This document shows positions 15,909 through 64,000 of a stretch of 64,000 bases of DNA, piece by piece. The notes under the pieces are model-generated. The model saw only the letters and a list, made by a program, of their open reading frames with translations, did no database searches and was not told where the DNA came from. A program made the position numbers and the translations under genes. Positions within the stretch are counted from its first letter, which is position 1, and each line of letters opens with the position of its first letter. The DNA is taken from assembly GCA_973895155.1 (NCBI GenBank), contig OZ316892.1, positions 10,210,283 through 10,274,282 of the forward strand. The letters are read 5' to 3'. This stretch comes from Marsupella aquatica (lineage: Eukaryota > Plantae > Marchantiophyta).

Positions 15909-18009
15909 CTTGTTCTCACTGCATGTTTGGGGACGGTTCTCCTTAGTTTACTACGTACTGCTTCAGAGCTCGCTTCAGAGCTCACTTCAGAGCTCACGTC
16001 AGAGCTAGGCCACACCGAGGACCACAGCGATCGACTTCTAATTGACTGTGACCTCGTGCCAGTCAAAGTTATTGTTTCGTAGAGAAATAGTCCAACTGAG
16101 ACTGGGTTCTCAGTGTGTGGCCCCTAATGATGCATGGCTCGCATGCAGCCGGCCCCCAACCGCTGCCTTACTTCAATTCCTCCTTCAGTTCACGTGCTTG
16201 ATTCCTTATTTGTGTTCTTTGGGAGCGGAACTTCCTAAGCTGAAATTGCAAATTGCAAAATTTTCCCTTCCCCATCTTCTTCGTTCTTTCTTGGGTGAGG
16301 GTACTGTCCCGGGATTTCCGGGAGTTAAGGGTTTAGGGTTTGTACCCTAACGTTCTGGAACCTGGTGCACTATTGACTCGTTGATGGAGTAAGTAAAATT
16401 AGGTTGCAAGGACTTGTGAGGGATATACTTGATGGGACCCTAAATTGAAAAGTGCTCCTTGAGGGACCCCATGAGGCCCCATCCATGAGGTTTTTGGGTA
16501 CACTGATTAAGGTCCATCAAAGGTCTGGATCACTGATGGGGTCCATTAATACCTTCCATGTTGGGAATCCATCAAATATATCTGTGAGTGACTTAATTAT
16601 TGATTGAAAGAAGTGAAGTTCGATTTGGTTGTGATGGGATCTCAGCTGGAACCTGTATCCCAAGGTATGCTATTTCAATTCAAAGTATCGTTACCAGATT
16701 TTAGGCTACTTAATTGTTGATGTAAAGAAGTTAATTGCCAGGTTGATTGAAAGTCTCTTATCAACAAAGTAAGACTGTAAGGTAACTCTAGTGGGGAGAG
16801 TTTTGGCAAGAGTATTGTGTATAGCTAGACAGTGTTCTTGGCTTATAGCAGCTAAATGCTCAATGTGGTGACCTTGTAGCCTTTGTCCAAAAAGTTTCCT
16901 TCGTTAAGGTAGCAAATCCAACTGCAGCTAATGGCAACTTTTGTTTAGTATTTCTTTTCCTTACATTCTTTCTATAATTTTGTCATGAGCTGGAGAGAGA
17001 AGCATTTAGCTGATAAAAAATCACTGCAAACAACAATTACTATCGTAGTGCCATCCACTTGTGCAAAAAATGATTAAGTATTGAAAATTTGTGTCTGACT
17101 AACAAAATATTTTTTTCCAGTGCTTATAAAACCTCAAAAGAATTTTGATTATAAACACTGACTTTGCAGTGTATGTATTATATTTAGAATTAAAAACACT
17201 AGTAGAAAATGGGGCCTTTTATGACTATGACACATATGACTTATGTGCTCAAATGACAAAATATGTAAATGACATAACATAAATGACATTGAAATGACTG
17301 TCCAAAATGACGGGGTGCAAAAAATGACTAATACTTGCAATAGTGTCATTTAAACCAATGAGCCAAATGACTTTGACTGCTATAATGACAACAATCATGA
17401 GTTGTAGTCATTTTGGACAGTCTTTGTGAATGACACAATTAACAAAAACTCTGTCATATCAGTGTTTCACATATGGGAAGTCATTTCAGACGACGGTGAC
17501 TAATGACTAATAAATCAAATATGCAAATATCAGTGTTTAAAAATGTTAGTAGTCATTTAAACCAAAAGTGATAAATGACATGATAAACAACATATGACTA
17601 TTTTGAGGTTTATGGTTTAGTATATGTTTTAGGGTTTAGGGTATGATTAGTCATCCAAAATGTATGGTAGTATATATAAAGACTAGTGGCACTCACATAT
17701 TAGATTTGAAATACATTTAGAGACCTAACAAGCCTTCTTTTGTTGTGAGTCTCATCATTAAATTGATGTACAACTTAAAGGCTTGATAATCTCTAATAAG
17801 TATGTACATTTATATATACTTGCACCCATTTATTACATCTTTCCTATATATGTCAAGGACTCCTGAAGTGTTTACATTCCTTAAGCTGTATTCACATTTC
17901 ACATGTTGGAGTATATATGGGGGCATGCAAGGTTGCCAAATAACACTCTCGGGCATAGGTCTAGGGTTTAAGGTTTAGAATTTAGCTACTACATGCCTAT
18001 ATTTGCTCA

Positions 18010-20290
18010 TGTCATTTTTTTCAATATATTATTCATGTTATTTGCAAAGGATTCCCAATCATTTTTGCTCTCACTCAACTTTCTAGTCATTTGACAAGTG
18101 CCGCTAGATGTCATTTATGCAAATGTCATTTGGGATGTCAATGTTGTGGTCATGTATGCCATGCAGAATATGACTCTTAAGAGCCTTTGGTGCCTGATTG
18201 ACCCCATTGGTGATAGGGGCCGGCCATTAAGGATGATACCCACTTCACATGGTGCAGGATAGGGTACTTGACAACCCTGGGCCACTGGTTATACCATTTG
18301 GCCTCCACAACACTTTTTAAAATACACATTTTGCATCATGGAAGGGCATCACCCAACTTTGGGCAAAACACTCCCAAGTTTTTATGACTTTGGAGTCATT
18401 TGCCCAAAGGGGTGCAAATCATTCTAATTTGGTTATTTGCAAGGGATCTTGAGTCATTTGTGCATCTGACTAAAGGTTTTTGTCATTTGTGGAGTGCCGA
18501 GGGGTGTCATTTAAGTAAATGACATAAATATGAGTCATTGATGATGTCAATGCGGCAGTCAAGCATGCCATGGACAATATGACTCCTTGGGGCCTTTGGG
18601 GGCTTATTCGCAATATCTGTGATCGCAGCTGGCCATAAGGGATGCTACCCACTCCACATGGTGCGGGATGGGGTACTTGTACACCCTGAGCCACTAGTTA
18701 TGCCACTTGGCCTCCACAACACTTTTTTAAGCACACATTTTACATCATGGAAGGGCATCACCCAACTTTGGGCAAAACACTCCCAAGTTGTATGACTTTG
18801 GAGTCATTTGCCCAAAGGGGTGCAAATCATTCTAATTTGGTCATTTGCAAGGGATCTTGAGTCATTTGTGCACGTGACTAAGGGTTTGTGTCATTTAGGG
18901 AGTGTTGGGAGACGTCATTCATGTAAATGACACAAAAATAGGTCATTCATGATGTCAATGTTGCAGTCATGCATGCCATGGACAATATGACTCTTTGGGG
19001 CCTCCGCAGGTTGACTGGCCATATCCATGATTGTAGCCCACCATTAGGGATGCTACCCACTCCACATGGTGTGGGATAGGGTACTCGACAACCCTGGGCC
19101 ACTAGTTATACCACTTGGGCTCCACAAAGCTTTTTAAAACACACATTTTGCACCTTGGAAGAGCATCACCCAACTTTGGACAAAACACTCCCAAGTTGTA
19201 TGACTTTGGAGCCATTTTCTTGAAGGGGTGCAAACCACTATTGCTTGGTCATTTGGAAAGGATTTAGAGTCATTTGTGCGCATGACTAAGGGTTTTTGTC
19301 ATTTTGGGAGTGCCGAGAGACGTCATTCGTGCAAATGACACAAAACTCAGTCATTCATGATGTCAATGTTGCAGTCATGCATGCCATGGGTAATATGACT
19401 CTTTGAGGCCTCCGGGGGTCGACTGGCCATATCCATGATTGTAGCCCACCATTAGGGATGCTACCCACTCCACATGGTGTGGGATAGGGTACTCGACAAC
19501 CCTGGGCCACTAGTTATACCACTTGGCCTCCACCAAGCTTTTTAAAACACACATTTTGCACCTTGGAAGAGCATCACCCAACTTTGGACAAAACACTCCC
19601 AAGTTGTATGACTTTGGAGTCATTTGCTTGAAGGGGTGCAAACCACTATTGCTTGGTCATTTGGAAAGGATTTAGAGTCATTTGTGTGCATGACTAAGGG
19701 TTTTTGTCATTTTGGGAGTGCCGAGAGACGTCATTCGTGCAAATGACACAAAACTCAGTCATTCATGATGTCAATGTTGCAGTCATGCATGCCATGGGTA
19801 ATATGATTTGTTTGGGCCTTTGGGGGCTGATTGACAATATTTGTGATTGTAGCCGGCCATTAGGGATGCTACCCACTCCACATGGTGCGGGATAGGATAT
19901 TCTTCAACCCTCGACCACTAGTTATGCCACTTTGTCTCCTAAAGGTTTTTTGTAGCCAACTTTTTGCACCAAGGAAGGACTATGAGATTCTTTGGGCAAA
20001 ACACTCCCACGTTGTACGACTCAGTAGTCATTTAGCTAAAGTGGTCCATATCACTCCCATTTGATCATTCCCAAGGGATTCCGAGTCATTTTGAAAGTGA
20101 GTGCACTTTTTGGTCATTTGTGGAGTCCTATAATACGTCATTTATGCATTTGACATGAAAATGAGTCATTATTGATGTCAATGCGGCAGTCACGCATGCC
20201 ATGGACAATATGACTCTTTGGGGGCTTGGACGCTGATTGGTCATATTGGTAATAGGAACCCACCATTAAGGATGCTTCCCGCAAAGAATG
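18010..20290. repeat. ~408 bp tandem repeat, about 5.5 copies, inside CACTA element 1
   Basis: Anchor motif gggatgctacccactccacatggtg at ~18230, 18639, 19047, 19455, 19863 and (partial) 20269. Units are rich in GTCAT/ATGAC. Confidence 0.9.
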
Positions 20291-20984
20291 TATTGCATTT
20301 GGCAATTATGGAGTGCCGTGAGTTTAGGTTTTGGGCAATGACATCAAAACAAGTCATTTATGTTGTCAATCCTAGGAGTGAGGACTATGAGATTAGTGAT
20401 TTAATATGTGAGTGACTAATTTTATGAGAATGTCCACCAAATGACTTCCTCACTTAGGTAATTGCAACGTCATTTGGTGGGTCAATGAGGATGTACATCC
20501 TAAACCTATGCGCGCATATGTTTGTAATTTATTTTGTGTTATATACTATTTGGGAATTTTGGCACCTAGGTTTCCACATCAATGGGTTTCAAAGGCCACC
20601 AGTAAATTAAGTTTTTGAGTCACTGGTTATTGTAGATGGTAATACATACTTGTGACAAGTATTTGTGTCATCAAAAAAACATTTGCCCCCAAACTTCCTC
20701 CATCTCCTAAAATTGATTGGCGAGGGGAAACATCCTAGTAAAATTGACGGCAACGGGAAACATCCTAGTAAAATTCCCGTTGCCGTCCCAAAGCCTTATT
20801 TGCTGACCATGTGTCATCTTGTCATGCCCCGGCCCTATCTTCCTTGGATCCCACGAAACAACGCCCGGCCACATGGATCCCATTTTCCCATAAGAAATTC
20901 AGACCTGGGTTTAGGGTCGCCTGTTCAGTCACACCGGTCACACAAGTCACAAGTTCACGTTGGGAGTTAAGGTATTCTCGTGAA

Positions 20985-21200
20985 GTTGAGCAGCGAGTGG
21001 AGGTGCGAGGTCACTGCTGCGAGTTGAGGTGCGAGGTCGCTGCTGCAAGATCGGTGCTGAGCGGTGAGTTGAAGTACGAGATTGCTGCTGCGCGCAACCT
21101 CGGTGCTGAGCAGTGAGTTGAGGTGCAAGGGCACTACTGTGAGGTCGCTACTGTGAGATTGCTACTGTGAGGTCGCTGTGAGGTCGGTGCTGCGTTTTAG
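20985..21200 (+). repeat. GC-rich short direct repeats, probably in the non-coding leader exon of element 1
   Basis: Recurrent gagttgaggtgcgaggtcgctgctgc and actgtgaggtcgct units in a CpG-rich island within an otherwise CpG-poor element. Confidence 0.6.
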
Positions 21201-23223
21201 GGTGAAGGAGCTGAGGTCCGCTGCGCCTAATTTTCTGATCACATTGTGAGTTCCCTTACGGACTTGGAACTCCTCACAGGTGCCCTTACTTACTGCCACC
21301 ATTCAGTTCATGAGCTCGAGTCGTGGTGACAATTTTTGAGCCCATTTCTGAGTAGAGGATCAAACATTGGGTTACGAAGTGGGTGCATTGAAGCTCCGTT
21401 TGAGGTGTGGTTGTGTTGGAGTTGGAGCTACAGACAAAGATTAGGTCCTGAGCAGCAGTCGCAAACAATTGAGGAGCACTGGACGTGATACGAGGTGGGG
21501 GCCGCTTCATTTCATTGCTGTGGTAGTTGGCATATTACTTGCACCTTGGCTACCTCGTTTTTCTTTTTGGCATCGATTGTTATTGCTCTGAGTTCTCTCT
21601 CTGTTTTGCTTCAAAACTCTGTCCATTTTGTGGTGCCTCGCTTGTACAGCAGGAGAGTTCCTTGTATAGCAGGCTCAGGGACTTCGACTGTCTTTCATTG
21701 TGTGTTGTGTTATGGGCTGCAAGGTGAGAACTGCGCTCCACATTGGCGAGGACGGGATCCCTTTCTTTCAGTTTCAGTGAAGGGCCGAGCTACGACTGAA
21801 ACGCCTTTACCTGCTGCCATTTAAACCGCTCTGAGCTCCTTGAAGCTTGGGTTATCAGGTAAGAGTATGGATCTACATTGCCCTTATTTGTTGTCCTCTT
21901 TGAATATGTACATAGCTCTACCTGATGGGGAGTATGTCTGTACACTCAGCTAGAACCAAGGCAAGTGGTTGCAATAGTGAATGAATGCTACTATCGGCCA
22001 CACAAATGAATTCATTCAAGTTGAATGTTTGAGACATTCTCTAAAGTTTTACGGACTTTGCTTATATATAACCCGGCGTTTGCTCTTCCGTAAGCTTTGA
22101 CTATTTATTATTGTGCGACGTGAGATTGTATGAAGGTGGGAGCTGCACTCCACACTGGCAAGGACAGGAAGGTTTTTTTTCTGTTTCCAGTGAACGACAG
22201 AGCTGCAACTAAGGTAGAGCTGTGCTACGTTCTACCAAGGCAGACATTGGACCTGCAAGTTTCAGTTCGAGTGAAGGACAGAGCAACTCAGGTACAAGCA
22301 AGCTGCTAGTTCGATTAACTGAGTTGCAAGCGACTTCCAACATTCAGTGAGACTGCGAGTGATTGGAGCTACGACAAGAGCTGCAATCAACATGGGCGGA
22401 CATTGGACCTACATTGGACATTGTGTCCCCATCAGTAGAGTGCACAAATCCTGCTTAATTTGCATTTTGGTCCTGGCCTGGCTTGCTTTGTGGTCCTATG
22501 CACTGTGCATCCTTTGTGTCTCCATGGAATATCAAATAGTTACATAGTCTCTGCTCTGAGTACAGTGTTGTGCATTATTGTTTCATCGAGCTCCTCAAGA
22601 CAGTACCAATTTGTAGAGCAGCATGTAATGCTAGGTTTGAACACCAAGGACCAAGTAGTTTTTACAGAGTCTCGGGTACAGAGCCTATGTATGAAGAGGT
22701 CAAAGGCATGAGGATTTTTCTTTAGTACAGAGTTCCTGGGATCTACAAATAATTCTTGTACATGGACAAAGTATTTCTCTGTAGATTTGTTTTTAGTCTG
22801 CCTGACTGCAGCCACTTTGCTGTCCTTCCATTCCACTCCAATGTTTGTAATTTTCTCAATCTATTGAGCCCGTCAACTCAATCGCTGCTACTTTGTTTAT
22901 TTTCAACAACTTTGATAGAACACAAATTAAATAGATAGCCAGTGTGAGTCAACAAATTTTCAGAGAGTAAATCCATCCCTGGATTTTATCTCAAAGAACC
23001 ATGTTTAACTTTTTGCTCTTTGTGCAGAGCACGCAAGAAGCATTGCCAAGTTATTGTACTCTGTGAAACTTAGGTGGGCAGGACATCTGTTGATTTGGAC
23101 TTTTTGCTCTCTCACGGTAAGTACACTACACACACGCTCTTCTTGTTTGTGTCTTGCCCCTCTCCATAAACTTCTTGTAATATTCACTTAGGTAATTGTG
23201 CAGATCCACACATCACATCGGGC

Positions 23224-23922
23224 ATGGCACGGGCTGCTGCTGCCTGGCTGGATCCAAAGTTTGCCCATAAAGAGCACCTTCGCATGGATCCCCCTTGTTG
23301 TTTTGAATGTGATGAGGGAGGTACTGTGTTGTTTTGCGATGGGCCTTGCAGTCGTCATTTCCATTACTTAGTTGATGGGCAGAATCCTGAGGACCCTGAT
23401 GGCCATGGGCCTGAGTGCACACTCGTTGCCATTTCTAGAGGGCATGATTGGGCCAAGGAGTGGCTCTGTGACCTATGTCAGCAGAAGCGAGGTCGTTGCT
23501 TTGCTTGTGGGCTGCTTGGCCGAATTTTGAATCCCACTACAGATGAGCCCCTTGTGGTCCAGTGTGCACAGGATGACTGCTATTCCTTTTATCATGTGGG
23601 TTGTCTGCGGACTATACTGAAGGCGAGGGAGTTGCCTCTGATAGGGTACCCAGAGAACCCAATTGCACATCCCGCTGCTCTGATATGCCCAAGGCATTAT
23701 TGTGATGTTTGCAAGGAGTATCGGGATGGCATCTGGGAATTTATCCAGTGCCGTAGGTGCCCTCGTGCATGGTGCAGGGATGAGGGACCAGAGGCAGACA
23801 AACACCTGAAGAGAGGGGTGAAGGGTAGAGAAATGTGGGATATTGGTCCATGGCGTATGGTGTACTGCAATCACCATGTCATTCCAGAGGGTCCTGATGT
23901 GCCACCTCATGATTTCAAATAG
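23224..23922 (+). CDS. Multi-PHD zinc-finger protein (EDM2/NSD-like composite PHD) carried by CACTA element 1
   Basis: Intact 232 aa ORF: CFECDEGGTVLFCDGPCSRHFH...C...WLCDLCQQKRGRCFACGLLG...QCAQDDCYSFYHVGC...ICPRHYCDVC...QCRRCPRAW. The Cys/His spacing matches the tandem PHD cassette of plant EDM2 and animal NSD proteins, recognised by eye. Confidence 0.8.
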   Translation: MARAAAAWLDPKFAHKEHLRMDPPCCFECDEGGTVLFCDGPCSRHFHYLVDGQNPEDPDGHGPECTLVAISRGHDWAKEWLCDLCQQKRGRCFACGLLGRILNPTTDEPLVVQCAQDDCYSFYHVGCLRTILKARELPLIGYPENPIAHPAALICPRHYCDVCKEYRDGIWEFIQCRRCPRAWCRDEGPEADKHLKRGVKGREMWDIGPWRMVYCNHHVIPEGPDVPPHDFK

Positions 23923-24253
23923 ACCATAAGCCTTCAATTGTGTAGGAAACACTGCATAGTACAAAGTATACTAAACATAAAAGGGGCTAAGGACTTATGG
24001 AAGTATACAGGTTTTAAAATGGACTAAAGGACTACAGTGGAACACCAGACCTTTTGGTTTGATGAAAATGGAGTGAAGTGTCAAGTTGGATTGAATGGAC
24101 TAAACTGTGAGATTGTATGAAATGGGGTAAATTGTCTGATGGACTAAACTCAAATGGACTAAACTATCTGATTGTATGAAACATTTGGTTGAATGTTAAA
24201 GTGTTTGCATGGGTTCCCGGATAAAATTTTGGCTTTTTGTATTTGTCACAGTA

Positions 24254-24700
24254 ATGCCAAGAACACTCAGCAGCTTGGAAGCTGACCTTGAAGGCAGAGC
24301 TGAGAGGCTACTCCTGAAGCAGAGTGGAATGAGGTTGGTCCCTGGCAGCTCTGCTGTGAAATGGGAGTTTTTGCCTGTACAGAGAGACACGCACAGTCGG
24401 CCCATTACTCTAGATGCTCCACCCTTGCCCATAGGTTTTTGTATTGTGGCAGTCAAAAATGGAGTGGTACAACCAGAGCAGATATGCTACTCTGCCTGTA
24501 TCCACAGTTGTGAGGATTTTTGCCCAAAATGTCGAGTGCGCCCAGGGGATATATATAGGCGAGATGGACATAGTAGAGTGCAGAGGAGGTGTGCCTGTAT
24601 AATGTTTCACCATGATGAGCCGGTCTTGGGACCAGGAGTTGAGACTGTTTGCCCAAGAGTAGAGCAGCACTTAGTGGAGAAAGACCAGTATCAATTCTGA
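24254..24700 (+). CDS. Small Cys/His-rich protein of unknown function in element 1 (148 aa)
   Basis: Open frame starting just after a ttgtcacAG acceptor. The C-terminal half has CYSACIHSCEDFCPKC...RRCACIMFHH...CP. Confidence 0.5.
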   Translation: MPRTLSSLEADLEGRAERLLLKQSGMRLVPGSSAVKWEFLPVQRDTHSRPITLDAPPLPIGFCIVAVKNGVVQPEQICYSACIHSCEDFCPKCRVRPGDIYRRDGHSRVQRRCACIMFHHDEPVLGPGVETVCPRVEQHLVEKDQYQF

Positions 24701-25691
24701 TTGTATGATGACTGTTAGAGTGTGGCAAACATATGAAGAGCCTTAATGGAGTTACATAACAAAAAAACTAAAAAACATCACACTGACATCTGAGGCAAGA
24801 CCTAAAATCCACCCAAGGTCTGTAAAATTGTGTTGTCTCTTTGAGGGATCTGGCCATAAGAAGGCAAACTTCACTTAATGTCTCTAGTTTTGTAGTACTG
24901 CCTTTGTAAACCCACAGCCTTAAGAAGGAGTTGAACCTGGGTCTATGAACTTTATTATTTTTTATAATTTTGAACATTGAGTGTGTATTTCATTCTTACT
25001 ACTGCACAAAAACACTATATGTTAAATTATGTACATTACATGACACCCTTTCAGGCCCTTGTCCATATGTATCCTAGTTTTGTGTGGCGATGATGAAACA
25101 TTGTGATCATTCTGCCTGTTTGAAGAGGATCATTTCAACAAATGAATTCAAAAGTCAAAGAATATATGAAGGAGGCTGGGGATTGTTGGACATTATGATT
25201 AATGTTTGTATTGTACTCATTGTTTTGAAGGGTCTGAGATTGCTGACTACTGTGAACACCCTTGGCGTAAATCTGGTTCAGGTAGGCCTTTATTTTGTCT
25301 TGTAAACTTATGACATTTTGCTTTGTACAATTCAAGTCTCCTTCAAATAACCATTGCCACTTACTATTAATATGAAATGAGATTAGGTGACGTACCCAAG
25401 TAAATAATTTCTGATCAAATTGCTAGTATGTCATATGTTTACCTGTTGTTGGCATGCATGTACTATTCTATTGGCAATGAAGGGTAAAGTGGGAGCTGCC
25501 TTTACCTCAGTTGGAGTATTGTACCTCAATTGTATGTCTATTCTTCACTTGTGCACACATTTGCTTCACATGACGGTCTAGAGGATGGTATGGAAGAGTT
25601 TTGGAGTTGTCTAAAACAAATTCATATGCTCTACAAGATATCACAGAAGGTAGATGTGCAACTGTGTTTTTGATTAGGTAGTGCTGCAATC

Positions 25692-28600: not shown

Positions 28601-29479
28601 TGTGGGCCTAGGAGCTGACTATCATTATTGCCATGCAGGGTTTATGATGATCAAAAGGAGGCAGTTACCAAGCACAGAGCAGATTTCCGGAAAGAATGGA
28701 TGAAGAATCCAGGAAATCGGAGGAATCCTGTGCCTTATCCCTCTGATTTGGATGAGTTACCTCCTTTTAGAGAATGGTTTGAAGTGACAATTAGAAGGCA
28801 TAATTTTGTGAATGAGTTTGAACGAATGGTGTTGGCAGCATATAGTGTACCACCTAGTCTGAAGGCACTACGGTATAGGGCCTGCAGAGCCTATGGGCAC
28901 CATTGGAGGACCATTCCATCACTAGGTTCCTTGATTGATTGTGACTCATCTGGGTTCAAGACTTTTGATTCTGGGATGGCTTGTACATTCACTGAGAAGC
29001 GGGTCATTAGGTTAGGGGCAACAGTAGATGAATCTGTACAATATGTGGGGGTGTTGACAGACATCTTAGTATTGAACTATGGGCCTCTGATAAAGGAAGT
29101 GGTCCTTTTCAAAGGAAGGTGGGCAAACTCATCTTGGACTCCCAAAGCCACTGCAAGTATGAGATATGATGCGTCTGGATTGTGGCAAGTAAATTTTCAG
29201 AAGGAGCTAGGTGCTTCCAAGAAAATGGACTATGTATTGCCATGACAGATAGAACAAGTGTTTTTTTACCCAAATGATAAGGGGATTGCATGGAGGACAA
29301 TCCTCCACAAAGAATCCAGGTCTACAAGGGTGTTGGGTGATTACATGGAAGTTGATTTCCATGATACTATGGATGACAATGCTAAGTTTCACATAGAGTT
29401 GGCAGAAGCCTGTACAACTAGACAGGAGCCTGGACCAAGTACTACAGACAAAGAAAAAAGAAAGTATAAAAGGAAATGA
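25692..29479 (+). pseudogene. TnpD/Tnp2-type CACTA transposase (transposase-associated, Transposase_21, DUF4218 and DUF4216 regions), disrupted
   Basis: MYCSCMQC..HLLKNG; LRYFPIIPRLKRLY; RHPADSKAWKH; PRNVRMGLALDGVNPF; LDPMHCEKN; GLKSHDFH; FPPSFFDVMTHLLIHLV; GPVNIRWMYPIERYLKTLKGYVRNKARPE. In-frame stops (e.g. 27003, 29243), frameshifts (~27190, ~27740, ~28300) and introns at ~27512-27620 and ~28523-28638. Confidence 0.9.
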
Positions 29480-52200: not shown

Positions 52201-54674
52201 AGAGTTCATGTGTGACTAGTTATCAAAAACAAGTATTGAAAGAATGATTATAAGAAAGTTAATCGAAAAACTGCACACCTTTTTAAAAGTTAGAGAATTA
52301 CAATACTTTAAGGCATATAAGATGCACTCATCAATTATCAGAATACTAGTTCTGCAAGTAAGGAAATATGCCACTCAAAATTATATGTAAAATATAGTGA
52401 ACCTGATCAAGACCAAGGAATTGAAAAAAATTTAAGGGGCTGCCCAAAATGACTAAATTCTATATAGTACATGGCTAATGCATGGACTAGGCCAGATTAA
52501 CATAATAATCCATTTCAATCAACTTGAATAAGACAAGATAGCCAAAGAGTGTCCCGCCATATAGCAATATAGCAACCTCCAAAAAATAATGGATAAATCC
52601 TCTATGGACTTTAAAATAAGTGTTCCACAACTGATCTGAATAGACATCCATAGGACAACATTTGGCTGAAAGGAAGCTTCATTGGCTAGGAACAAGAAAA
52701 AACAAAATCCACCTGAAAATTATAATTGTTATGGTCAGATTCTCTGAGCAGAACTTTTTTTCAGTATCATTGCTCAAGGATTGTGTTGCCCTATTTGATG
52801 ACAACATGAAAGTTCTTTATGCAATGGAATCAAGCCAGTATATGTGTAATTAACAATTTCCAAAGTGAATGAGACAACGCTACTGCCAAGACTCTCCTTC
52901 AGCCCCCACTTCATCGTTCTTGTGACCCAATGGTCCTTTTCCCCTTAGGCTTTTGACAAGCTGGGTTTCCTCTCCTTCACATGGGGCCCCACGTTCTGGT
53001 ATGATGGGCTGTGTTGTGATCTTCTACCTCTCTTTGCCTTCCCCGTAGTCTTTGCTGGTAGGTATACCCTAACTTTAACCGAACATTAAGTACCAGCCAA
53101 GCCTAAACTACCCTAATTAGCTAATGTTCCTTTGCCTAAGTGAACAGGAGATCTACTCTAGAGGCTCATCCCATCATAAGACTCTCATTGTAACTCTAAA
53201 AAGTTGGTGCTTTCTTAAGAAATATGAACTAGGTAGATACCCGGGTAGATACAGTTTTTTGTGAAGGGGACATGTATTCTTATGTCATGGAATTGGAGTT
53301 GTGATAAATTAATTAGATGATACTCAAACTCTTAAATTCACAACAATACAACAGTTTTGCTGTACACCATTTTGACTGTATTAGCCACCTGAGTAGCCCA
53401 ATGTCCATGCTTCCATAAATATATCAAGGTGACAAGCAAAAAAAAAATGTAGGTATGCCAAGGCAATTCCTGAGTAGTTTTTTGTGCCGCTGCACTCTGT
53501 TCTTGTTGCTACTACGTGCGATTGTCCATACAATGATGTCCTTGCACCATATAGTGCCATCATGGCGGAGATTGCATGTTCTTGTTGCTACTGCCATGCA
53601 ATCGTTGCCGCCATGTGGTCAATCCTCTGTGTTGCACACTTGTCAGAACCACCATGGTTTTGTGGCAGTCATGAGGTGGTTGCAACCATGTTGTTGTTGT
53701 GAAAGTGATGGAACAAGGGTGAGACAGCCCCTATAGGACAGAGGCAGGCGTGGTCACTTGGCACTAGGTGGACGAAGACCTTCCCCCTCCCCTGCCCTTC
53801 CTCTCCCTCTCCTCTCACTCCTGTCCTCACTCCGGTGCCCGCCCTCCCTTGTGTTCTTGTTGCGTACAGTGAGTCATTGTAAAGAAAGTTGTCATTCACT
53901 ACAACACTATGCACCTCTTTTGCGAACCACCACCCTTCGCATCATACAAAGGAAACAAAATCCGAAATACCCAATTTGCGAATTTACTCGCATCGCAACG
54001 TCTTCGCTACTTCCCATCTCAAATTCTTCGCAAACGGCCCTTCGCAACTACTTCGCAACTTGCGATTCTAAATACGTCGCAACATCTCCGCAACGTTGCG
54101 ACGGCACTGTCCTTGCAAATATTGAGAAACGACAAATTTCATTATTTTGCGAGAACAAATGAATCGCTCGCGTTGCGATAACATTTACATCGCAATTTCC
54201 GATGTTAAATTTCTCTATAACTTGCGATGCAAACAAACTCGTAAGATTGCGAGAAGTGGATGACCGCTTTGTTGCGAAGGCATTTAACTCGCAAACGTGT
54301 GGAGAGGAAGTCTTCGCTAGGGTTGTGATTTAGACAACATCGCAAGTGTTGCGATGCGTTTCTCCTCGGAATGGTTGCGATACGTTCACCGTGGCTCTTT
54401 GAGATGGGGGTTGGTTCTCAAAAGCTTCGCAAAATGTATATTTCATGGGTTTTTGTGTATTTGGGTTACGGTGAGGGTGAGGGAGACCATTCATGGGTTT
54501 TGAAGGAGGGAGGAAAGTGATGTTGACCCAGTCTGCCGCAATTAAAATGACATTACTGAAAAAGTACAAAAGTTACAAAATGGAAGGGTAAAAACCCTTA
54601 GGTAAAGTGCCACGGCCATGCATGCTGATCGCTATACATGTGAACTCGATGTAAGTGCTCTAGCTACAACTTGT

Positions 54675-56755
54675 CTACATTGAGCTAGAAAGGAGTGTTC
54701 CTGCCCCTCCTTGCCTTCTTCCCCTTGGCCTTCTCCTTGCCCTTGTGTGCTCTTGGGGGGGTGCAACCTGGACTTCCTCCTCCTCTTGGTCACCCTCGGG
54801 GTCACCCTCATCCTCATCCTCATCCTCATCCCCACCTCCACCGCCCTGGCTTGCCGCGCTACCACCCCCAGCACCACTGGAACGTGCTGATGCAAATGAC
54901 TGGTCTCCAGTGCTAGTTGGCCTGGCTTGAGTAGCAGGAGCTGTGCTCCCCTCCCCTGTCCCCTCCACATCCTCATCACTACTATCGGTGCCACCCTCGG
55001 TATGGGAGTCACCATCCTCCCCTCCCTGCTTCCATTAGCAAACCAGGGTGTCTGTTAGTCTCATATTCTTTACAAGTGTGAACAAAAGAGATATTCATTC
55101 AAAATTGCAATGAATGTAATAACCTAAAAATTCTCACCAATAATTCATCAACTTGCTGAAAGAGATGCTCCTTCCCATGTTTCTGGCCCACCTCCATCTC
55201 AGCCGCCGTAATCTTCCTCTTGTACCTCTTGTACTAAGCCAAAACAAAACCAGCACAATTGGGTTAACACCAACCCATAACCCGATTCACATGGCTTCTA
55301 AAAATTAGGGGGTTTGTTGGGGCTGGTGGGGTGGTGCATCAAGGTTTTGGGGTTATGGAGGGTGGCATATATGGGGAAGACCCTCAAAGAACACTTAAAC
55401 GATCGGAAAATTTAAAAATTCAAATTTTTGAAATTTTGCGAAGGTGCCAGCTTCGCAATCATAAGGACAATTACGTTTGCGAAGCTGGTTGCGATGCGAA
55501 CGTCTTCGCAACGCCTTCGCAAACGTAAGCAAAAAAAGGGCATAATAAGGTTTGCGAAGGATTTGCGAAGCTACCCGCATCGCAAATGTATCGCAAACTC
55601 TGTCATGGCAAAAACCCGAGAGGGAAGCAACTGTACGTGACCTAATCTGACACAACAAGTCTAATTGTAACTACTTGGTGGAAATGCAAGAAAGAGTTGG
55701 CTCATTGCAGGTGTGTTGGAATAGGAATTGGAGTAGCAAGAAGTCAAGGGAGGAGAGGGAGGTGCACTCACGAATGCTGCTTTGAGGCCGGGGAGGCCAC
55801 CTTGACCCAGCCTGTGGGTGATGTTGGGCTTGTCTCGGACTCGCTCAGCTGCCTTCAGGAACTTGTTGGGTGGATCGCCTACTTCTGCTACAACCTGCTG
55901 GAGCTGGGCTACCTTCTGCTCCATCACCTTCAGGTCCCGGTCAGACTTCCCGGCCTCCTTTGCCCTTCGAGCCTTTGCCAGCTTCTTTGTGAAATCATTG
56001 AGGAGCCTGGCTGCTTTCAACTTCACCTCTGTCTGGTAGAAGGCCTGCTAGATATCTTCTGAGAATTGCAGCGGCCTTTGCAAATTCCTATACTCCTCCA
56101 AATCTCTAAGGTGAGACCTGATCTTCATTCTATCATGGTATCTAGCTTGTGACATGGAGTTTGAAATTTTGTCAGCAAGCCACTGTGAATCCATCTCTCC
56201 TCCATTTCGAAATGCATCTTTCACCTGATTGATGACTTGCTTCTGCTCTGCCTTTGAGCGAGTGCCCCACTTGACTCCTCTTGCAAAATTTGTGGATACA
56301 ATGTGCCTGATTGTGCTCTTGGCCCCATTGTAAGCAAGCTCGGTGGGAATCCCCTCATCCTCTAAAGTAATCAGAGGCAGCTTCCTCCTTGCTGCCTCCT
56401 TCTTTCTTTGCTCCTCCCTCTGTTTCCTGATCAGGTCTCTCTCATCTTTCCTCCTCTTCTTTTCCAATGCTTGAGGCGAGAGCACTCCAGCCTGAGCTCT
56501 CTCGTCCCTCTTTCGCTTCCTCTCAGCAGCCGCCTGCTCTGCTGCCTTCCTTGCATCCTCCTCCACTGCTGCTTGCCCTGCAGTGAGACCTGCTTGCAAG
56601 GCTTGGCCCAGAAGGGCACTCAATGATGCCAGCCCTGCTGGACTGGTGAAATCAATTTGACTCAACTGTGCAACCAAAAAATGCTCATCCACAATCGCCT
56701 TCAATCGATCCCCCCCCCCCTCGGTTGCCTCCGCTGCTGCCAGAAGCTCCTCCAT
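54675..56755 (-). pseudogene. TnpA/Transposase_24-like gene of element 2. Exons 56755-55772, 55233-55138, 55025-54675; premature stop at 56048-56050
   Basis: VKWGTRSKAEQKQVINQVKDAF...QRPLQFSEDI*QAFY...THRLGQGGLPGL resembles the En/Spm ORF2 core. Phase-0 GT-AG junctions join the three exons, ending in an acidic tail. Family assignment is by resemblance only. Confidence 0.65.
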
Positions 56756-57539
56756 CACCACCAGTCCCCTCTTCGCTCGCCATCGCTCCGCCCTTGCCCT
56801 CGTTGCTCTCCTCAGGCCTGAATGAACTGAATCCGCCTTGTCCGCACTCGGCAATCCATAAGGATTCAAAATATTGGGCTTTGCGATTCGTTTCGCATCG
56901 CAGTTTGCGATGCATCGGCCTTCGCAAAAAGCTTCGCAAATTCTATCTTTGCGAAGCTTCAAGATTCGCAAAAGCCTTCGCTATTTGGTTTTGCCATAAC
57001 CCCCGTCTCGCATGCGTATTTGATGTGTTGTTAGGGATACTAAGGGGGCTTATGAACATTAAATGGGGTAGATGTAGAGGATTATGTTGCATTTTAGTGG
57101 GATGTGATGAGATAAGGATTGGGGGGGTTAGAAAATTGAAGGAGTTATATTGCAGGGTAAGAGGAGGGGGTTTGGCCTGGTTAGGGGAGGGTTTCTTTTG
57201 TGAAGGTTGGGCTTAGATTGGCTTAGATACGAGGGGTTTTATGTTTTGGGTTTGCAGGGGGGTTTTATTTATGAAGGTTGGGGTTATATGTATTGGAGGG
57301 TAAGAGCTAGGAGGGGTTTTATGTTTTGGGTTTTGGGGTTTAGGCCAACTTAGGAGGGTTTGAAAGAGAGGTTTCAGTTTTATAGTATCTTGGGTTACTT
57401 TTATGGTATCTTAGGAGGGTAACCAAGAGGGGTGGCATATAATTATGGTAGAGAGAAGCATAGGATGGTTGAAGGGAATTGACCATTTAGGTTTTTGCTA
57501 ACTTCATTGGCTTATGCTTTTAGAGTTCCCAAGGGTCTA

Positions 57540-58510
57540 TGGTGGGTTTTTATTGCATGACACTCACCTTTCACTTGAAGCGGGATGAGGTTTTGGTTTT
57601 TATGCTAACAATTGAGGGAAATCCCATGTAATCATGATCCAGTGCAGGACCATCACTGCTTCCTCAACTTTTGTCTAATGCATATGCATTGTGGGAACCC
57701 GGACATCTAAAAGGTATATTTAAACATGTATGTTAGCAGGGTTTGATAAAGAGATTGTTCATAAACCTTGCCCTTCTTTGTTGTGCAAGAATATCTATAT
57801 GCACATGTTTGGGGGTCTACAACTTGAGAGAAGCTAATGGCTATCCAAACTTACTTTTTTGTTTCCAGTATTTTCCTCGTGCTTCTAGATTCAGCTCATG
57901 TTCAATGAGCCACACGACCTACAGGCACTATTGAGTCCGGATCTCATTCAGGTAATTATTGTCCAACTTCATTCTGGGCTTAGGCCTTTAGAGTTTTCCC
58001 AGGGGTCTAGGGTGGGTTTTTATTGCATGACACTCACCTTTCACTCGAGGGGGGATAAGGGTTTAGGGTTTAGGGTTTTATGCTAACAATTGAGGGGAAA
58101 ACCCATGTAATCATGATACAACGCAGGGCCAACACTACTACCTCAACTTTTGTCTAATGCATATGCATTGTGGGAACCCGGGCATCTAAAAGGTATAACA
58201 TCATGTATACAGTCAATGTTGTTAGTACAGATTTTTATGCTTGCCCTTCTTTGTTGTGCCATGATATATGTGGGTAAATGTCTAAGATTCCACAACTTGA
58301 CGGCTGCTAATTACCATCCAAACTTACATTTTGTTTCCAGTATTTTCCTCCTACTTCTAGATTTGGCAAATGTTCCAAAAGCCACGTGACCTATAGGCAC
58401 TGTTGAGCCCGGGTCTCATTCAGGTAATAATCTAACCTCACTTAGGACATAGGGTATTACAATTTTCCCAAAGGTTATAATGTGGTTTCTTCTTGCATGA
58501 CACTCACCTT
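57540..58510. repeat. ~470 bp tandem repeat (2+ copies) between the divergent genes of element 2
   Basis: ggtgggtttttattgcatgacactcacctt at ~57541, 58011 and (variant) 58482, with collinear downstream sequence. Confidence 0.85.
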
Positions 58511-58666
58511 AATTTGGGTTTCATGCTAACAAATATAAAAGGGTAATAAAACCCCATGTATAAACCAACCTAATTGTTTTTTGAGTTCATTTTTTTTTAA
58601 ATCGCTTTATATATGGCCTAATTTTTCCTAATCATGCCCTACATGCAATGTAATGTGGCAGTGGAT

Positions 58667-58891
58667 ATGTCCTCTTCCTCTGAACTATCCAGTAGTGAGC
58701 ACTCCTCCGATGACGATATACCCCCTCCTCCTCAGCCCGAGGTTACTGGTCCTCGTGGTCCACCCCGAAGACTTTGTGACTGCACCAGATGTGTGGGCCA
58801 AATTTCTCAAAAATCTTATGTGTGTGCTCAACATATTGAGAGATATGGACGTCATAGAGGTCTTACTCCCGGGGCTTCTTCATCCCATATG
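58667..58891 (+). CDS. First coding exon of the element 2 transposase locus (transposase-associated Cys/His domain)
   Basis: MSSSSELSSSEHSSDDD...RLCDCTRCVGQISQKSYVCAQHIERYG, a CxCxxC...H motif homologous to the N-terminus of the element 1 transposase. Ends at a phase-0 GTAAGT donor (58892). Confidence 0.7.
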
Positions 58892-59002
58892 GTAAGTTTG
58901 TTTCAATTGATTGTCGTTCTTTACTGTTATTTTTAGAGGTGAATCAATGTTTACACATATGGTTTACACATTTGGTTGTTTGTGGGTGTTTGCATGGAAT
59001 AG

Positions 59003-59833
59003 GGATCCAGTATGCGTAGATTGGTGACACCACCACCCTATGTCCCATCACAAGGAGTTTTAGATGCTATAGGCAATGCACTTTCACAAGCCTTGGGTTT
59101 GGGAATTAGTACCAGTCATGGGACAGAAGGGGAACACCCTCATGTGCCCACTGAGACACGAAGACCCCGGTCCAGGCCCCAATCCAACAGGAGGCCACGA
59201 GCACCCAATGACCCATCCAGAACACTAGTTCAGGGTAGGTGGGGTGTTTGTTCATTCACTGGCAAGTGTGCCTCTATCATCAAGGATTGGGAACCTATCA
59301 CTCTTGGCTTGCCTTATTTTACAGATTTTGATGAGGAGATTGTGGTTTGGGGTAGACGTTGGATTGTGAAAACTTCCACACTTGGAGAGAGACATGGATA
59401 TGGAGTATTTGCTTGTGAGGATATCATCATGGATGAGGAGGGTGGGTCAAGTGTTCGTGGTAGAGAGGGTCCTACTTTGTTCCCATACGGTGGACCCATC
59501 TACAAGAGAAGACATTGGAACATGATCCTTGCACAACATCCTGAGTGGAAAACATATGCTCTAGAGATGGATACTTTTGATGGTAGCACTAGAAGGTATA
59601 GTGAGCAGCGGGTGATAGATGGTGATCCCATACGTAATGGGAATATTGCTGGTTTCATAAATAGTACTGTGGGGACTCGGCCCAAGCGTAGGGCCAATTG
59701 TGAGTGGGTTTTTACTGATGGTCCAATGCCGGCACCATATGGCACGACATATCATAAGGACCATTGCTTAGTTCTTGCTACTAGGACCATTAGAGCAGGA
59801 GATGAGTTATTCACACACTATGAGTGGGATTAG
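59003..59833 (+). CDS. SET-domain protein (putative lysine methyltransferase) exon inside CACTA element 2
   Basis: VKTSTLGERHGYGVFACEDI (motif I), FPYGG (YxG), YALEM..IDGDP..GNIAGFINS...ANC (motif III) and VLATRTIRAGDELFTHY (motif IV). Uninterrupted frame; no post-SET cysteines. Confidence 0.85.
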   Translation, partial: GSSMRRLVTPPPYVPSQGVLDAIGNALSQALGLGISTSHGTEGEHPHVPTETRRPRSRPQSNRRPRAPNDPSRTLVQGRWGVCSFTGKCASIIKDWEPITLGLPYFTDFDEEIVVWGRRWIVKTSTLGERHGYGVFACEDIIMDEEGGSSVRGREGPTLFPYGGPIYKRRHWNMILAQHPEWKTYALEMDTFDGSTRRYSEQRVIDGDPIRNGNIAGFINSTVGTRPKRRANCEWVFTDGPMPAPYGTTYHKDHCLVLATRTIRAGDELFTHYEWD

Positions 59834-60044
59834 GAAATCATGTCCTTTATCCTCTTGCACCTATTTTGGACTTCCCATTTACTATTATATATATGGCCTT
59901 TGGGCTCATTTTGGAGTAATAAGGTTTTAGCCCATGCATTTACTTTAATTCTTAATGTCTTGAATGAATGGTGTTAAGTCTATTTTAATTTGTTGTACTT
60001 GGTCAAATATACATGAGGAGGTTTTTTGGTTGTAATGTGCATAG

Positions 60045-63000
60045 AATGCGCAACCATCTCAACAAATGTTACCACGAAGGTTGAGAGCAACATATCGGGA
60101 GATGGGTATGCCAGAAGAGGGAGAACCATCAGAGGGTGATTCCTCATCAAGTAATGATGTAGGTGGTGCTGATGAGGAAGCCGCACCTCGGACTGATGAC
60201 CAGGTCATGCATGATCAAGATAGAGCCATGGATGACTTCATGGTTGATTGGTTTGGTGCCGATGTTGAGGATGATGTGCCTCACATTGGTCATGAGGTTG
60301 GCCCTTCAAATGACCCACGGCCACAACATACTCCAGAGGGACAACAACAATGGAAAGAGGCAGAGGAACATGCTCGAACACCTATTTTTGAGGGTGCTCG
60401 GTTGAGCCGTCTTTCTGCCATATTGGGGCTCTTGAACATTCAAGCCAAACACAAGACAAGCAATTCTATGTTATCAGACATATTTGAATATTGTCATGAC
60501 TTGATGTTACCCTCGGAGAATGTGTTGCCAGGGACCTGGAAGGATGCAAAGAAGGTTCTCTCATCCATTGGTATGGATTACCATATTATTCATGCTTGTG
60601 TGAATGATTGCATGTTATTTCACGGGGATACAGCCCATATCACAGAATGCACAGTGTGTCATGAGCCACGGTATGAGCCAAACATGCTAACCCAGAAGGT
60701 ACCAAGGAAAGCAGTTCGTTGGTTCCCCATAATTCCTCGCTTGTTGCACATGTATAGATGTTCTGACTTGGCCGAGTTGATGGTATGGCACAAGAAACAT
60801 CGTTCGGAGCCCGGTGTCATGCGATTACCAGTTGACTCTCCTGCTCATAAACATGTGGAATCAACATGGCCAGATTTTGAGCGTGACCCTCGGCATGTGC
60901 GACTGGGGTTGGCATCAGATGGAGTTAGCCCTCATTCACTTGGAGGGAAGGGGAGACCTACATCGGTCTGGCCTGTGGTTCTCATGAATTACAACCTTCC
61001 ACCATGGTTGTCCATGAAAAAGGGTTTTTTGTTGCTATCTTTGATTATCCCAGGGCCAAAGAAGGTGAAGAACATGGACACCTATTTGACATTACTGGTT
61101 CAGGAACTCCAGAAATTATGGGAAGGAGTATGGGCATATGATGGTCGAAAGACTACAGGGGGTACCCCACGGGTTTTCAAACTCAAAGGGGTTTGTATGT
61201 GGACCATGCATGACTACCCAGGTAAGAACTTTGTTGTTTAAATGCATCATATTCTAATGCATGGTATCCCCTCATTTCCATGTGCTAATCCTAACATAAT
61301 GTGTGTTTATATGACCAGGATTTGGCTTTGTGAGTGGGTTGCAAACCCAAGGCTACAAGGCTTGCTCCACTTGTGGCCCAAGCCTTGGTGATGTAGACAA
61401 GTATTCATCACATCTTCGCAAGATTGTTTATCTTGGGCATACAAAGTTTCTTCCAATGGGACATCAGATGAGGCGTGACCCACTACTATTTTCCTCTATT
61501 GATATGCCCTTTGGTGACGAGCGTGATGTACCTGAGCCAACAACTTTTACACACTGGAAAGACATGGCTGCAAGAGTGGCAGACCCAGAGGATCCCATGC
61601 AATTTGACGGTAGTGGCTTGACAAGGTGGAGTATATTAACCACTTTGCCCTATTGGGGTGAGTTGAAGATCCGCCATCTATTAGACCCCATGCACATTGA
61701 GGGAAATGTGGGAAAGGCTTTGATAAAGGCTTTCTATGGAGAGAAAGACACTAACTTCAGGGAGGCTTGTGAGGATCTTGAGATGCATCCAGACGTGTGG
61801 GTCATAAGTGATCCTATCACAGGGATCGAGCATCGACCTTCAGCTCCATGGGTGCTTCCTATTGGCCAGAGAAGGGAGTTTCAGAATCGCATAGGAGACA
61901 TGCGGTTTCCTACTGGTTATGGTGCCAATCTCCGAAAGGCCTTTGGGATGGAGGACAATCATAAGTGGCCAAGGTATCTCAAGACACATGACTACCATAG
62001 GTTATTGCAGCACATATTGCCTATGGCCATAATAGGTTTGGCAAGTGAAGAAGTGCAAGATGCCCTTTGGTCATTGGGAAAACTATTGAGATGGGTATGC
62101 TCTAAGGAGATATATACTGATGAGATCCCTGGGATGGAGGTTTTGGCAGCAGAGGTGGTATGCAAGTTGGAGAAGGCCCTTCCTCCTTCCTTTTTTGACT
62201 ATCAAGTGCATTTACTTGTTCATCTTGTTCATGAGGTGGCCATTGCAGGTCCTGTGCATTGTCGGTGGATGTATTGGCTAGAATGATACATGGCAGTGTT
62301 AAAAGGTTATGTACGTAACCGTGCACGGGTTGAGGGAAGCATGGCTACAGGATACTTAGCAGCTGAGAGTATGTTCTATTGTAGTAACATATTGGCCACA
62401 ATTGATTGTACCTCTCCCCGTACTTGGGTAGAGGAGAGGGAAGATGAAGAGGATCGTTTAACAGGTGCTAGGAAAACTCGCATGTTGACACCAGTGGAGG
62501 TGAAACAACTGACCACATTCATGTTGAGTAACAGCACTATCATGGAAGAATGGAGGGATTTCTATGAGGATGCCAAAAGTAACAGCACAAGACCAAGGAT
62601 TTTTCCAAAGTACCTTGACTATATGAAGGAGAAGTTAGTTGAGGTGGATGACATGGTGGTCAGGGGAGAGAGTGTATTACATTTTCCGGCTATCACAGAT
62701 GATGTTCGTACCATTGTTCATGGTCCCTTGAGAGTGGTTACAACAAGGACAGCAATGTGGACACAAGGAAGACATTTCAGGTGATCTCCATCTACCTTAG
62801 TAACCTTTGATTTGAATCACTTGGTTTAATTTAATTCATTTGTAATACAAGCACGTATATTGAAGAGGCAGATTCTTGGTGTGTTCAATTAATTGGAATA
62901 TGTTTTTGTCTATTTTTGTGTAACATATCCTTATGGTTTGATGGATTTTAGGATTTCTTCCCTTGATGAGAAGAGGGTCGTACCTTTGATTGTGGAGTTC

Positions 63001-63437
63001 AAGGACAATTCTCTCAAGATTCCCGCAGCAGTCGCCATGACACAAATATTATTCGAGATGTTGTGCCACATTATGGAAAGGTAGAAGAGATTCTAGTGAT
63101 ATCTTATGATGCACAATCAAAGTTTGAAGAGTATGTCTTCAAGTGCAAGTGGTTCAAAGTGAACCTTGCAGGTAACAATCCTACTGTGGTTCAAGATGAG
63201 TGTGGATTTACACGACTGAAGACGTCTGCCACTAGTTTCCAGCCATCTCATTGGCAAACATCAGAGCCGTTCACTTTTCCAAGTCATGTGGAACAATGTT
63301 TCTATATTCCATACCCCCCAAACCCAGAGGAATGGTCACTTGTCATCACATATGTGCCACGGTCTCGTTCAATCGTTGGGGAAAAGCCTGATATTCTGGT
63401 TGTGTCCCAACCTGAAGATGATGAGGACCAAGTTTGA
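60045..63437 (+). pseudogene. TnpD/Tnp2-type CACTA transposase core of element 2. Exons ~60045-61221, 61319-62780, 62952-63437
   Basis: IHACVNDCMLF; VRWFPIIPRLLHMY; PRHVRLGLASDGVSP; WTMHDYPG; LDPMHIEGN; LKTHDYH; GPVHCRWMYWLE*YMAVLKGYVRNRARVEGS; FKCKWF..EPFTFPSHVEQCFY. One TGA stop at 62284 (probably CGA>TGA) and one frameshift near 62975. Confidence 0.92.
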
Positions 63438-64000
63438 GGGGTCTGTGTTTGTGGATATATAGCTACACGGATATATAGTTAGATTTGATGATATGAAGAT
63501 TTCTCTTCTCGGTAGAATGGAGAAATATGCGCTTCTCAATTATCAATAAACTTATGTTTTGTAAGTATATCATTTTCAAATGTTGTTTTCTATATCTCCC
63601 ATCCCTACCCCACACTCACCACACCTTTTGGTAGACTTTATGCAAAGAAAACTCATGTTGCTTGTAGTCCTCTATCCTCCATGCTTTCCTAATCCCCCCC
63701 TAGCTGTTCTCCTTATTACTTATACCCACCTCCCTCCTCCTTTCTTTCATTGTCTGTCCCTCTTATTAAACCCTCCTTCCTCCTTCCTCTCCTTGTCCCA
63801 ACCCCTGGCTTTCTATTTCAACCCTATACTTTCCTTACTTTCCACCCCTGTCCCCCACTCTTACCTATACAACCTAGCTTCTCTCCTCCCTCCTAAACCT
63901 ATACCCTTAAACCTCCCTCATTTCCTTGTCCCTCTCTAAACCAATACCCTCCCTCCTTTCCTTGTCCTTCTCTAAACCCTAAACTCCCTCCTTTTTATTT

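Follow-up and report, generated by a model that had tools for sequence, protein, structure and literature searches.

The liverwort Marsupella aquatica carries, within a stretch of 64,000 nucleotides (contig OZ316892.1, positions 10,210,283 to 10,274,282; hereafter the window), two CACTA transposons separated by a gap of 20.4 kb, each with a gene for a chromatin-type protein. Are these genes parts of one transposon-borne system for chromatin control, or does each serve its own element? The original prediction for this DNA put forward the former as a candidate. It envisaged a variable cargo slot 5' of the transposase gene TnpD, filled by effectors akin to the VANC anti-silencing proteins that act on motifs multiplied by tandem arrays, with a reader in element 1 and a writer in element 2 that may cooperate. 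Our combined findings are best explained by two distant CACTAs, each with a conserved chromatin-type gene that would act on its own family. We give this reading an even chance; it rests on anatomy, splice phases, conservation, selection and fold.

Much of the earlier description of the two elements was borne out. Their repeated motifs differ (ATGAC in element 1, TCGCAA in element 2), and their transposases are diverged, with 28-36% identity. Each has a chromatin-domain open reading frame (ORF) that scores above the curated Pfam cut-off, PHD_NSD in element 1 (23170-23919, E 1e-8) and SET in element 2 (59003-59830, E 5.7e-6), and each has a tandem array, of 408 bp (x5.2) and ~470 bp (x2.1), respectively. 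Neither cargo ORF contains a lesion, TnpD has stops in both copies, and mosses and liverworts supply the closest named relatives of the two cargo genes. Both look like genuine element-borne chromatin-type genes, with functions predicted from sequence. The claim that they occupy the same position held only in part. In both elements an array lies upstream and the transposase core downstream, but the two places are not equivalent. The PHD ORF is found 3.0 kb 3' of the array and 1.8 kb 5' of the TnpD start, with one further ORF in between, and hence upstream of the N-terminal zinc-finger region of TnpD, whereas the SET ORF is downstream of that region, within the transposase gene. A shared cargo slot was rejected on account of these positions and because the SET exon is fixed in one CACTA clade and inherited within it. 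The proposed pairing of reader and writer also found no support: none of 26 SET loci (see below) has a match to the PHD ORF, and nothing ties element 1 to element 2. The two elements are not one system, and their proximity is likely due to chance.

The SET exon of element 2

Element 2 (53898..64000, plus strand) begins with the left terminus CACTACAAC at 53898, which is also found in loci L017 and L005, and its right end is beyond the window. Its TnpD contains Transposase_21, DUF4218 and DUF4216 (Pfam), as in CACTA transposases. The transposase gene contains the SET ORF in its first intron, flanked by a zinc-finger exon upstream and by the TnpD core downstream. Exon 1 (58667..58891, plus strand) encodes an acidic stretch and a CxCxxC...H zinc-finger-like motif and ends in a phase-0 GT donor. 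The intact SET exon (59003..59833, plus strand) begins at a phase-0 AG acceptor and encodes a low-complexity linker, the SET domain and a stop. The TnpD core exons (60045..63437, plus strand) likewise begin at a phase-0 acceptor (60044). The splice phases at 59003 and 60045 therefore suit both products, exon 1 joined to SET and exon 1 joined to the core. Exon 1 has no Pfam match of its own; it is 30% identical to the N-terminus of the element 1 TnpD (E 0.001). This copy is damaged, with a stop at 62284 in TnpD and another at 56048 in a minus-strand gene described below.

To what extent is this arrangement shared by other copies? A scan of metagenome contigs provided 26 SET loci, 17 close and 9 distant. 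The TnpD core begins ~150 bases past the SET stop in 13 of the 13 close loci with at least 300 bases downstream, and exon 1 precedes SET in 8 close loci. L015 has 3.3 kb available upstream, yet only the 3' part of SET is present there. The donor is conserved in 8/8 close loci, the SET acceptor in 9/11, the SET stop in 14/14 and the TnpD acceptor in 12/13, and these splice signals persist while the introns have diverged from those of the window. In contigs of sequencing runs X1 and X3, too, the end of SET is followed by the start of TnpD, with different intervening letters. Among the distant loci, L019 (31% identity) repeats the order exon 1, SET, TnpD, and L020 has exon 1 and SET. In database gene models P0127, P0128 and P0178, exon 1 runs into SET across the junction that the window predicts, and in P0052, P0097 and P0164 (Riccia and Sphagnum models) SET is fused with transposase sequence. 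We rejected a direct fusion of SET and TnpD as the principal form, given the stop after SET in 14/14 close loci; the fused models, which were not individually checked, are predictions in which part of SET is skipped or which come from decayed copies. From the sequence, we consider it very probable that both splice products are made.

The sister copy L017, probably complete at 9.9 kb (6153 to about 16045), is flanked by ACA on either side, and by eye 8 of 10 bases match at its right end. Its order is terminus, minus-strand gene, exon 1, SET, TnpD, terminus. It also contains a ~670-bp insertion with long inverted repeats (L017:14581-15257), resembling a miniature inverted-repeat transposable element. 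In the window, a step in read depth marks the left end of element 2; the depth over the element (~500-3400, versus 23 in the flank bin, run X1) is a mere hint of many copies, since contig depth is no measure of copy number. A contig of run X3, whose organism label differs from that of X1, spans the left junction (53500-53925) without a differing letter, and therefore either the insertion is common to both labels or the labels cover one taxon.

The SET gene belongs to a large, old family and is no random host fragment. Its relatives form 99 clusters at 50% identity, with 81 matches to our profile, and one cluster, in Sphagnum, has 360 members. Named members are 80% (Calypogeia, in the core), 72-79% (Sphagnum) and 32-41% (Riccia) identical. 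Purifying selection is indicated by the ratio of non-synonymous to synonymous substitution (dN/dS, by the Nei-Gojobori method, window against each of the 17 close loci), which is 0.19-0.30 in the SET core, 0.20-0.29 in exon 1 and 0.08-0.20 in TnpD. For this gene, then, a random fragment free of purifying selection, the outcome that would have undone the original prediction, was not what we found. The SET cores of P0127 (Calypogeia fissa) and P0128 (Sphagnum jensenii) are 76% identical to one another and each 79-80% identical to window positions 59219-59830. Identity of the EDM2-like PHD region is just 49-51% between Sphagnum and Marchantia or Riccia, and this difference suggests horizontal transfer of the SET-bearing element between moss and liverwort.

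What might the SET protein do? We propose that element 2 splices its one zinc-finger exon either to the SET exon or to the transposase core, and that the zinc-finger-SET product is a small lysine methyltransferase. The predicted structure (predicted local distance difference test, pLDDT, 89.8) has the SET fold, with Z 10.6-11.8 and a root-mean-square deviation of 2.2-4.2 across 117-139 residues in most comparisons, and is equally close to EZH2, Set1, SET7/9 and SET8. Searches of the PDB with the single SET or the single PHD sequence gave nothing useful. The closest solved sequence is Legionella RomA/LegAS4 (E 5e-5, 24-28% identity), also the top Foldseek hit. Across 46 aligned relatives, the two glycines of the G-x-G motif are kept in 44 and 45, Y/F-x-G in 46, the Asn in 42, and the two ends of E-x-x-x-x-Y in 46 and 44. 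The S-adenosylmethionine (SAM)-binding G-x-G and Asn and the lysine-channel and catalytic tyrosines are thus present. The His of the NH(S) motif is not, being replaced by Ser in 43 of the 46. LegAS4, an active enzyme, likewise lacks the usual His after the Asn, and the loss of this residue therefore lowers but does not exclude activity. Of six LegAS4 active-site residues named in bioRxiv 10.64898/2026.05.29.728679, four have counterparts in the element SET when mapped by hand, one is variable and one, Tyr231, has none.

From the modeled fold and the residues kept, methyltransferase activity is plausible, and we lean towards an active SAM-dependent lysine methyltransferase. That its substrate is a histone we put somewhat short of even, and a net effect in favor of the element's expression is rather doubtful. 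Alternatively, SET could be a catalytically weak or dead module, a histone-tail or SAM-binding decoy kept for binding. The missing post-SET segment, the His to Ser replacement in 43 of 46 relatives and a dN/dS above that of TnpD all agree with this; yet the glycine motif, the Asn and the two tyrosines persist in relatives down to 23-40% identity, and LegAS4 is active without that His. We consider such a module quite improbable. Another possibility is an active SET that dampens the element by writing a repressive mark, or one whose substrate is not a histone but, for example, the element's own transposase, its TnpA-like protein or a host factor involved in silencing. The shared first exon could place the protein in the transposition complex, and the fold is tied with SET7/9 and SET8, which have non-histone substrates. 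The observed/expected ratio (o/e) of CHG sites is also lower in the element 2 SET (0.54) and TnpD (0.71) than in the element 1 ORFs (1.15 and 1.17). However, the sequence it matches most closely is that of an H3K14 methyltransferase, and the strong amplification in Sphagnum (the cluster of 360) suits a benefit to spread; we regard it as unlikely.

Several observations weigh against an active SET protein that serves its own CACTA family. The protein ends three residues past the catalytic-type Tyr, at the place of SET8 residue 339, without a post-SET segment, and no substrate can be named because the fold is equally close to SET8, EZH2, Set1 and SET7/9. Of the 17 close loci, 16 are one family, 91-100% identical, which reduces the selection test to two independent comparisons; this sister family matches Sphagnum gene models in sequence. 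The database models that join exon 1, SET and transposase are predictions. Lastly, a transposase is seen in only one of the nine distant SET loci (L019), and L023, L025 and L026 have no transposase match in 1.2-4.0 kb downstream.

A separate observation concerns L021-L026. They form a distant SET group (25-32% identity) whose flanks, up to 4 kb in L026, have no transposase match, and their SETs may sit in another type of element or in host genes.

The PHD-finger gene of element 1

Element 1 (17197..33538, plus strand) is a complete but decayed CACTA transposon of 16.3 kb. Its termini, both CACTAG, are at 17197 and 33538 and agree in 13 of 15 terminal bases, and the element is flanked on either side by AAA, a 3-bp target duplication. 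With a Transposase_21 TnpD and subterminal repeats, it has the features of CACTA (En/Spm) elements. Behind its left subterminal region (17197..18100) and the tandem array (18134..20246) is a likely promoter and non-coding first exon (20650..21860, plus strand), recognized by its repeats, a GTAAG donor at its end and higher CpG content: CpG o/e is 0.68-0.73 in bins 20501-21500, versus 0.05-0.46 in the element body from 22501 on. The intact, intronless PHD ORF of 232 residues follows (23224..23922, plus strand), an EDM2/NSD-type PHD-finger module alone. Next is an intact Cys/His-rich ORF of 148 residues (24254..24700, plus strand) with a splice-acceptor-like site ahead of its start. It matched no Pfam family, and a look-up in the Atlas gave low-recognition leads only (Plavaka in 45% and Transposase_21 in 43% of members), which we did not use. 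The TnpD gene (25692..29480, plus strand) contains at least five stops or frameshifts. Its zinc-finger region (25851-25940) is in the same exon as the core, and the N-terminal region matches Transpos_assoc below the Pfam cut-off. A broken multi-exon gene (29551..32549, plus strand) with at least one stop and no Pfam match, which we take to be TnpA-like from its motifs, precedes the right subterminal region (32800..33538) with its 12-bp repeat. Element 1 also contains a protein-like open frame of 106 codons (22540-22860, minus strand) with no Pfam match.

The PHD ORF has the two and a half atypical PHD fingers of EDM2 proteins, with the zinc ligands kept both in it and in relatives at 56-68% identity. 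It has no methyltransferase-like (ELP) domain, the frame stopping after the PHD module, and we do not file it as EDM2. Three stand-alone relatives, of the same length and on short contigs, were found among 65 candidates (57-68% identity); P0001 and P0002 are among its relatives. Twelve longer ones were found among 2648 candidates, and all twelve carry PF22908 and PF26055; no transposase domain is listed for any of them, which is weak evidence. The PHD ORF and two full-length relatives form a clade (support 100/100) apart from the 12 host EDM2-like proteins. Identity is 56-68% within the clade and 25-31% to the host EDM2-like proteins, which are themselves 33-52% identical between lineages; the ORF is therefore not a recent fragment of a host EDM2. 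Its sequence is that of an old, conserved and truncated module. As it has its own conserved clade, the PHD gene too is probably no random host fragment devoid of purifying selection. None of 24 candidates from viral contigs scanned with the PHD alignment was confirmed.

Is the PHD ORF a gene of its element, or only a passenger of this copy, be it a captured host gene or a remnant of another mobile element? Several findings cast doubt on the former and, with it, on the proposed function. The link to a CACTA rests on one copy only, that of the window. At the lesion rate of TnpD, the chance of a lesion-free PHD frame is 0.25-0.38, and its intactness is thus not significant. All 12 host proteins have an acidic stretch ahead of PHD1 that is missing from the ORF, and PHD1 is poorly modeled. 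A passenger would fit the linkage in a single copy and the non-significant intact frame. Nonetheless, the ORF is more distant from host EDM2-like proteins than these are from each other, it is intronless with its own start, stop and acceptor-like site, and its CpG o/e (0.33) is near that of TnpD (0.24) and unlike that of host exons (0.58-0.83). No nested-element ends were seen around it, and its relatives are stand-alone ORFs of the same length. We therefore consider a passenger fairly unlikely and the PHD ORF probably a regular gene of the family of element 1.

The structural model of the PHD protein is of low confidence (pLDDT 58.6) and matches PZP and NSD PHD-C5HCH domains. As an EDM2-type module, it would be a predicted binder of histone tails. 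More specifically, it might act as an EDM2 mimic without a methyltransferase, reading H3 tails in the heterochromatin of the element or competing with the host EDM2, although we hold this only tentatively and think it less probable than not having such a role.

Motifs, tandem arrays and the probable role of TnpA-like genes

Do the cargo proteins act through the repeated motifs, as VANC does? According to PMC5735166, VANC binds short motifs multiplied by tandem repetition within non-coding stretches and demethylates whole elements. Some of our findings agree with such a scheme of variable cargo and array-multiplied targets. Both families have a chromatin-type ORF, the array of element 1 multiplies the family motif ATGAC tenfold, and element 2 has conserved internal clusters of its motif. 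ATGAC occurs at 22-49 per kb in the ends and array of element 1 (25 per kb in the left subterminal region, 22 per kb or 47 copies in the array, 49 per kb in the right subterminal region), compared with 2.2-2.3 per kb elsewhere. TCGCAA is found 37 times in element 2, compared with 12 times in the other 53.9 kb, in a CpG-rich left subterminal cluster of 20 copies (53898..54450) and in further clusters at 55436-55591 and 56881-56966. Each motif thus exceeds its background some tenfold or more.

However, the duplication in element 2 (57524..58510) contains no TCGCAA and is single in all four sister-family copies examined, and SET and PHD alike bear no resemblance to proteins that bind DNA sequence-specifically. 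With the non-equivalent cargo positions, the fixation of SET in its clade and the lack of a PHD match in the SET loci, we consider the variable-slot system very unlikely. The motifs are better explained by TnpA. The sequence targeted by TnpA of Arabidopsis Spm1, CCVTCGCAAA, has TCGCAA as its core, and through this target TnpA brings about sequence-specific demethylation of the ends only, as described in bioRxiv 10.64898/2026.08.24.746577; motif-based anti-silencing is therefore better assigned to TnpA than to a VANC-like cargo. The full 10-base motif is absent from element 2, and C[CT]TCGCAA occurs there 16 times versus once elsewhere.

A candidate for this role in element 2 is the conserved minus-strand gene (54678..56760), whose main exon covers ~55760-56760. 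It is found in four sister loci with a dN/dS of 0.09-0.28, and has no Pfam match and no BLAST match to the TnpA-like exon of element 1. It is likely the TnpA-like gene of its family, judging from its position, the motif clusters and an H-x-G-x-GG motif. It would fill the TnpA role in a divergent layout, because the complete copy L017 has no room for another gene after TnpD. Its main exon has TCGCAA clusters on either side, both in the window and in sister-family copies (L017 and L005).

The distribution of CpG sites bears on the same question. The left end of element 2 (bin 54001-54500) has a CpG o/e of 1.49, or 1.13 with the motif masked, and the body is depleted, which fits demethylation of the ends by TnpA. 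Coding bodies have a CpG o/e of 0.23-0.33, and both cargo ORFs are as depleted as the transposases. The element bodies have therefore long been methylated, a further difficulty for cargo genes that would counter silencing, and such depletion is not what long-term demethylation of whole elements would leave. Motif-based demethylation of the ends is, by analogy, likely the work of the TnpA-like genes, themselves putative, and each cargo protein would act separately on the chromatin or transcripts of its own family. The zinc finger shared with the transposase is an obvious candidate for the means by which the SET protein might find its family.

A bolder reading is that bryophyte CACTAs carry histone-level tools of counter-silencing: one old clade, spread horizontally between mosses and liverworts, with a SET writer on a transposase zinc finger that marks its own copies, and another with a stripped EDM2 reader that hijacks or blocks host transcription through heterochromatin. 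We regard this as speculative and on balance unlikely.

Neighboring genes and known systems

Four host genes were recognized by Pfam in the window: an F-box and JmjC gene (1776-3956, minus strand), an uninterrupted homoserine dehydrogenase ORF (5881-7143, plus strand), a GDSL-type esterase (8382-10235, minus strand) and a PADRE-domain gene (37235-37849, minus strand). The JmjC/F-box gene was rejected as cargo, as it is outside both elements. Outside the elements there are also a 109-bp tandem array at 10431-11370 and an ORF of 370 codons (14835-15947, minus strand) that contains an internal repeat and matches no Pfam family with confidence.

The plant anti-silencing factors VANC (PMC5735166) and TnpA (bioRxiv 10.64898/2026.08.24.746577) are DNA-binding proteins that act via DNA methylation. 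If our reading is true, a transposon of a land plant that encodes a lysine methyltransferase or an EDM2 mimic would work on the histone layer, and such elements would allow one to test directly whether writing or reading chromatin marks is something that transposons do on their own behalf. Hundreds of gene models labeled 'SET domain-containing' in Sphagnum and other bryophytes are flagged as transposon exons rather than host regulators, and the SET-bearing element is a candidate case of a transposon passing between mosses and liverworts. For SET, the anatomy is solid and the function predicted; the PHD account is newer but also less certain. A literature search that left out Repbase Reports, subscription journals and bioRxiv supplements (962 Spm protein structures; Plavaka tables), which may list such elements, turned up no description of a bryophyte CACTA that carries either a SET exon or a PHD gene of EDM2 type.

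How do these elements compare with known systems? Their nearest counterpart is En/Spm with TnpA and TnpD. As described in bioRxiv 10.64898/2026.08.24.746577, both share with it a CACTA terminus (in element 2 the left one), a Transposase_21 TnpD and clustered subterminal motifs. Element 1 also shares the 3-bp duplication, and element 2 the predicted production of several proteins per unit by alternative splicing, the TCGCAA core and a CpG-rich left end. The differences are that the alternative product of element 2 is a predicted zinc-finger-SET protein, that its likely TnpA-like gene is upstream on the opposite strand, and that the full Spm1 motif is missing. In that paper's set, TnpA-like proteins are restricted to flowering plants.

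Transposons with SET genes are already known, and the bryophyte CACTA with a SET exon is a new variant. SET genes are reported from HarbingerS and MuDR families of Phytophthora (PMC12730594), and from Helitrons and the red-algal Plavaka accessory gene PAG2 of the EnSpm superfamily (bioRxiv 10.1101/2025.02.11.637652). These have in common with element 2 a SET gene as a regular part of a DNA transposon. Unlike them, element 2 is a TnpD-type CACTA of a land plant, in which SET is a predicted alternative exon that shares exon 1 of the transposase. PAG2, likened to it here by description and not by homology, is a separate gene that also has a DNA methylase domain. LegAS4 shares the minimal SET fold, G-x-G, Y-x-G, Y-I-N without the His and the terminal Tyr; the element SET differs in having neither ankyrin nor post-SET region, and a shared origin or substrate is not supported.

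The VANDAL elements with VANC, as described in PMC5735166, are alike in having an accessory gene under selection and, for element 1 only, a motif multiplied in a tandem array. They differ in that the host element is Mutator-like, whereas both elements here are CACTAs, and in that VANC binds a DNA motif and demethylates the whole element, whereas the cargo here is of histone type and the bodies are CpG-depleted. EDM2, according to PMC7529245 and PMC3632883, is a protein with 2.5 atypical PHD fingers that binds to chromatin marked by H3K9me2 and favors the formation of full-length transcripts across heterochromatin in introns. The PHD ORF has two and a half such fingers with the same cysteine pattern, but at 232 residues, versus 747-1635, it has neither the methyltransferase-like nor the RFD domain, belongs to a separate clade and is found in a transposon.

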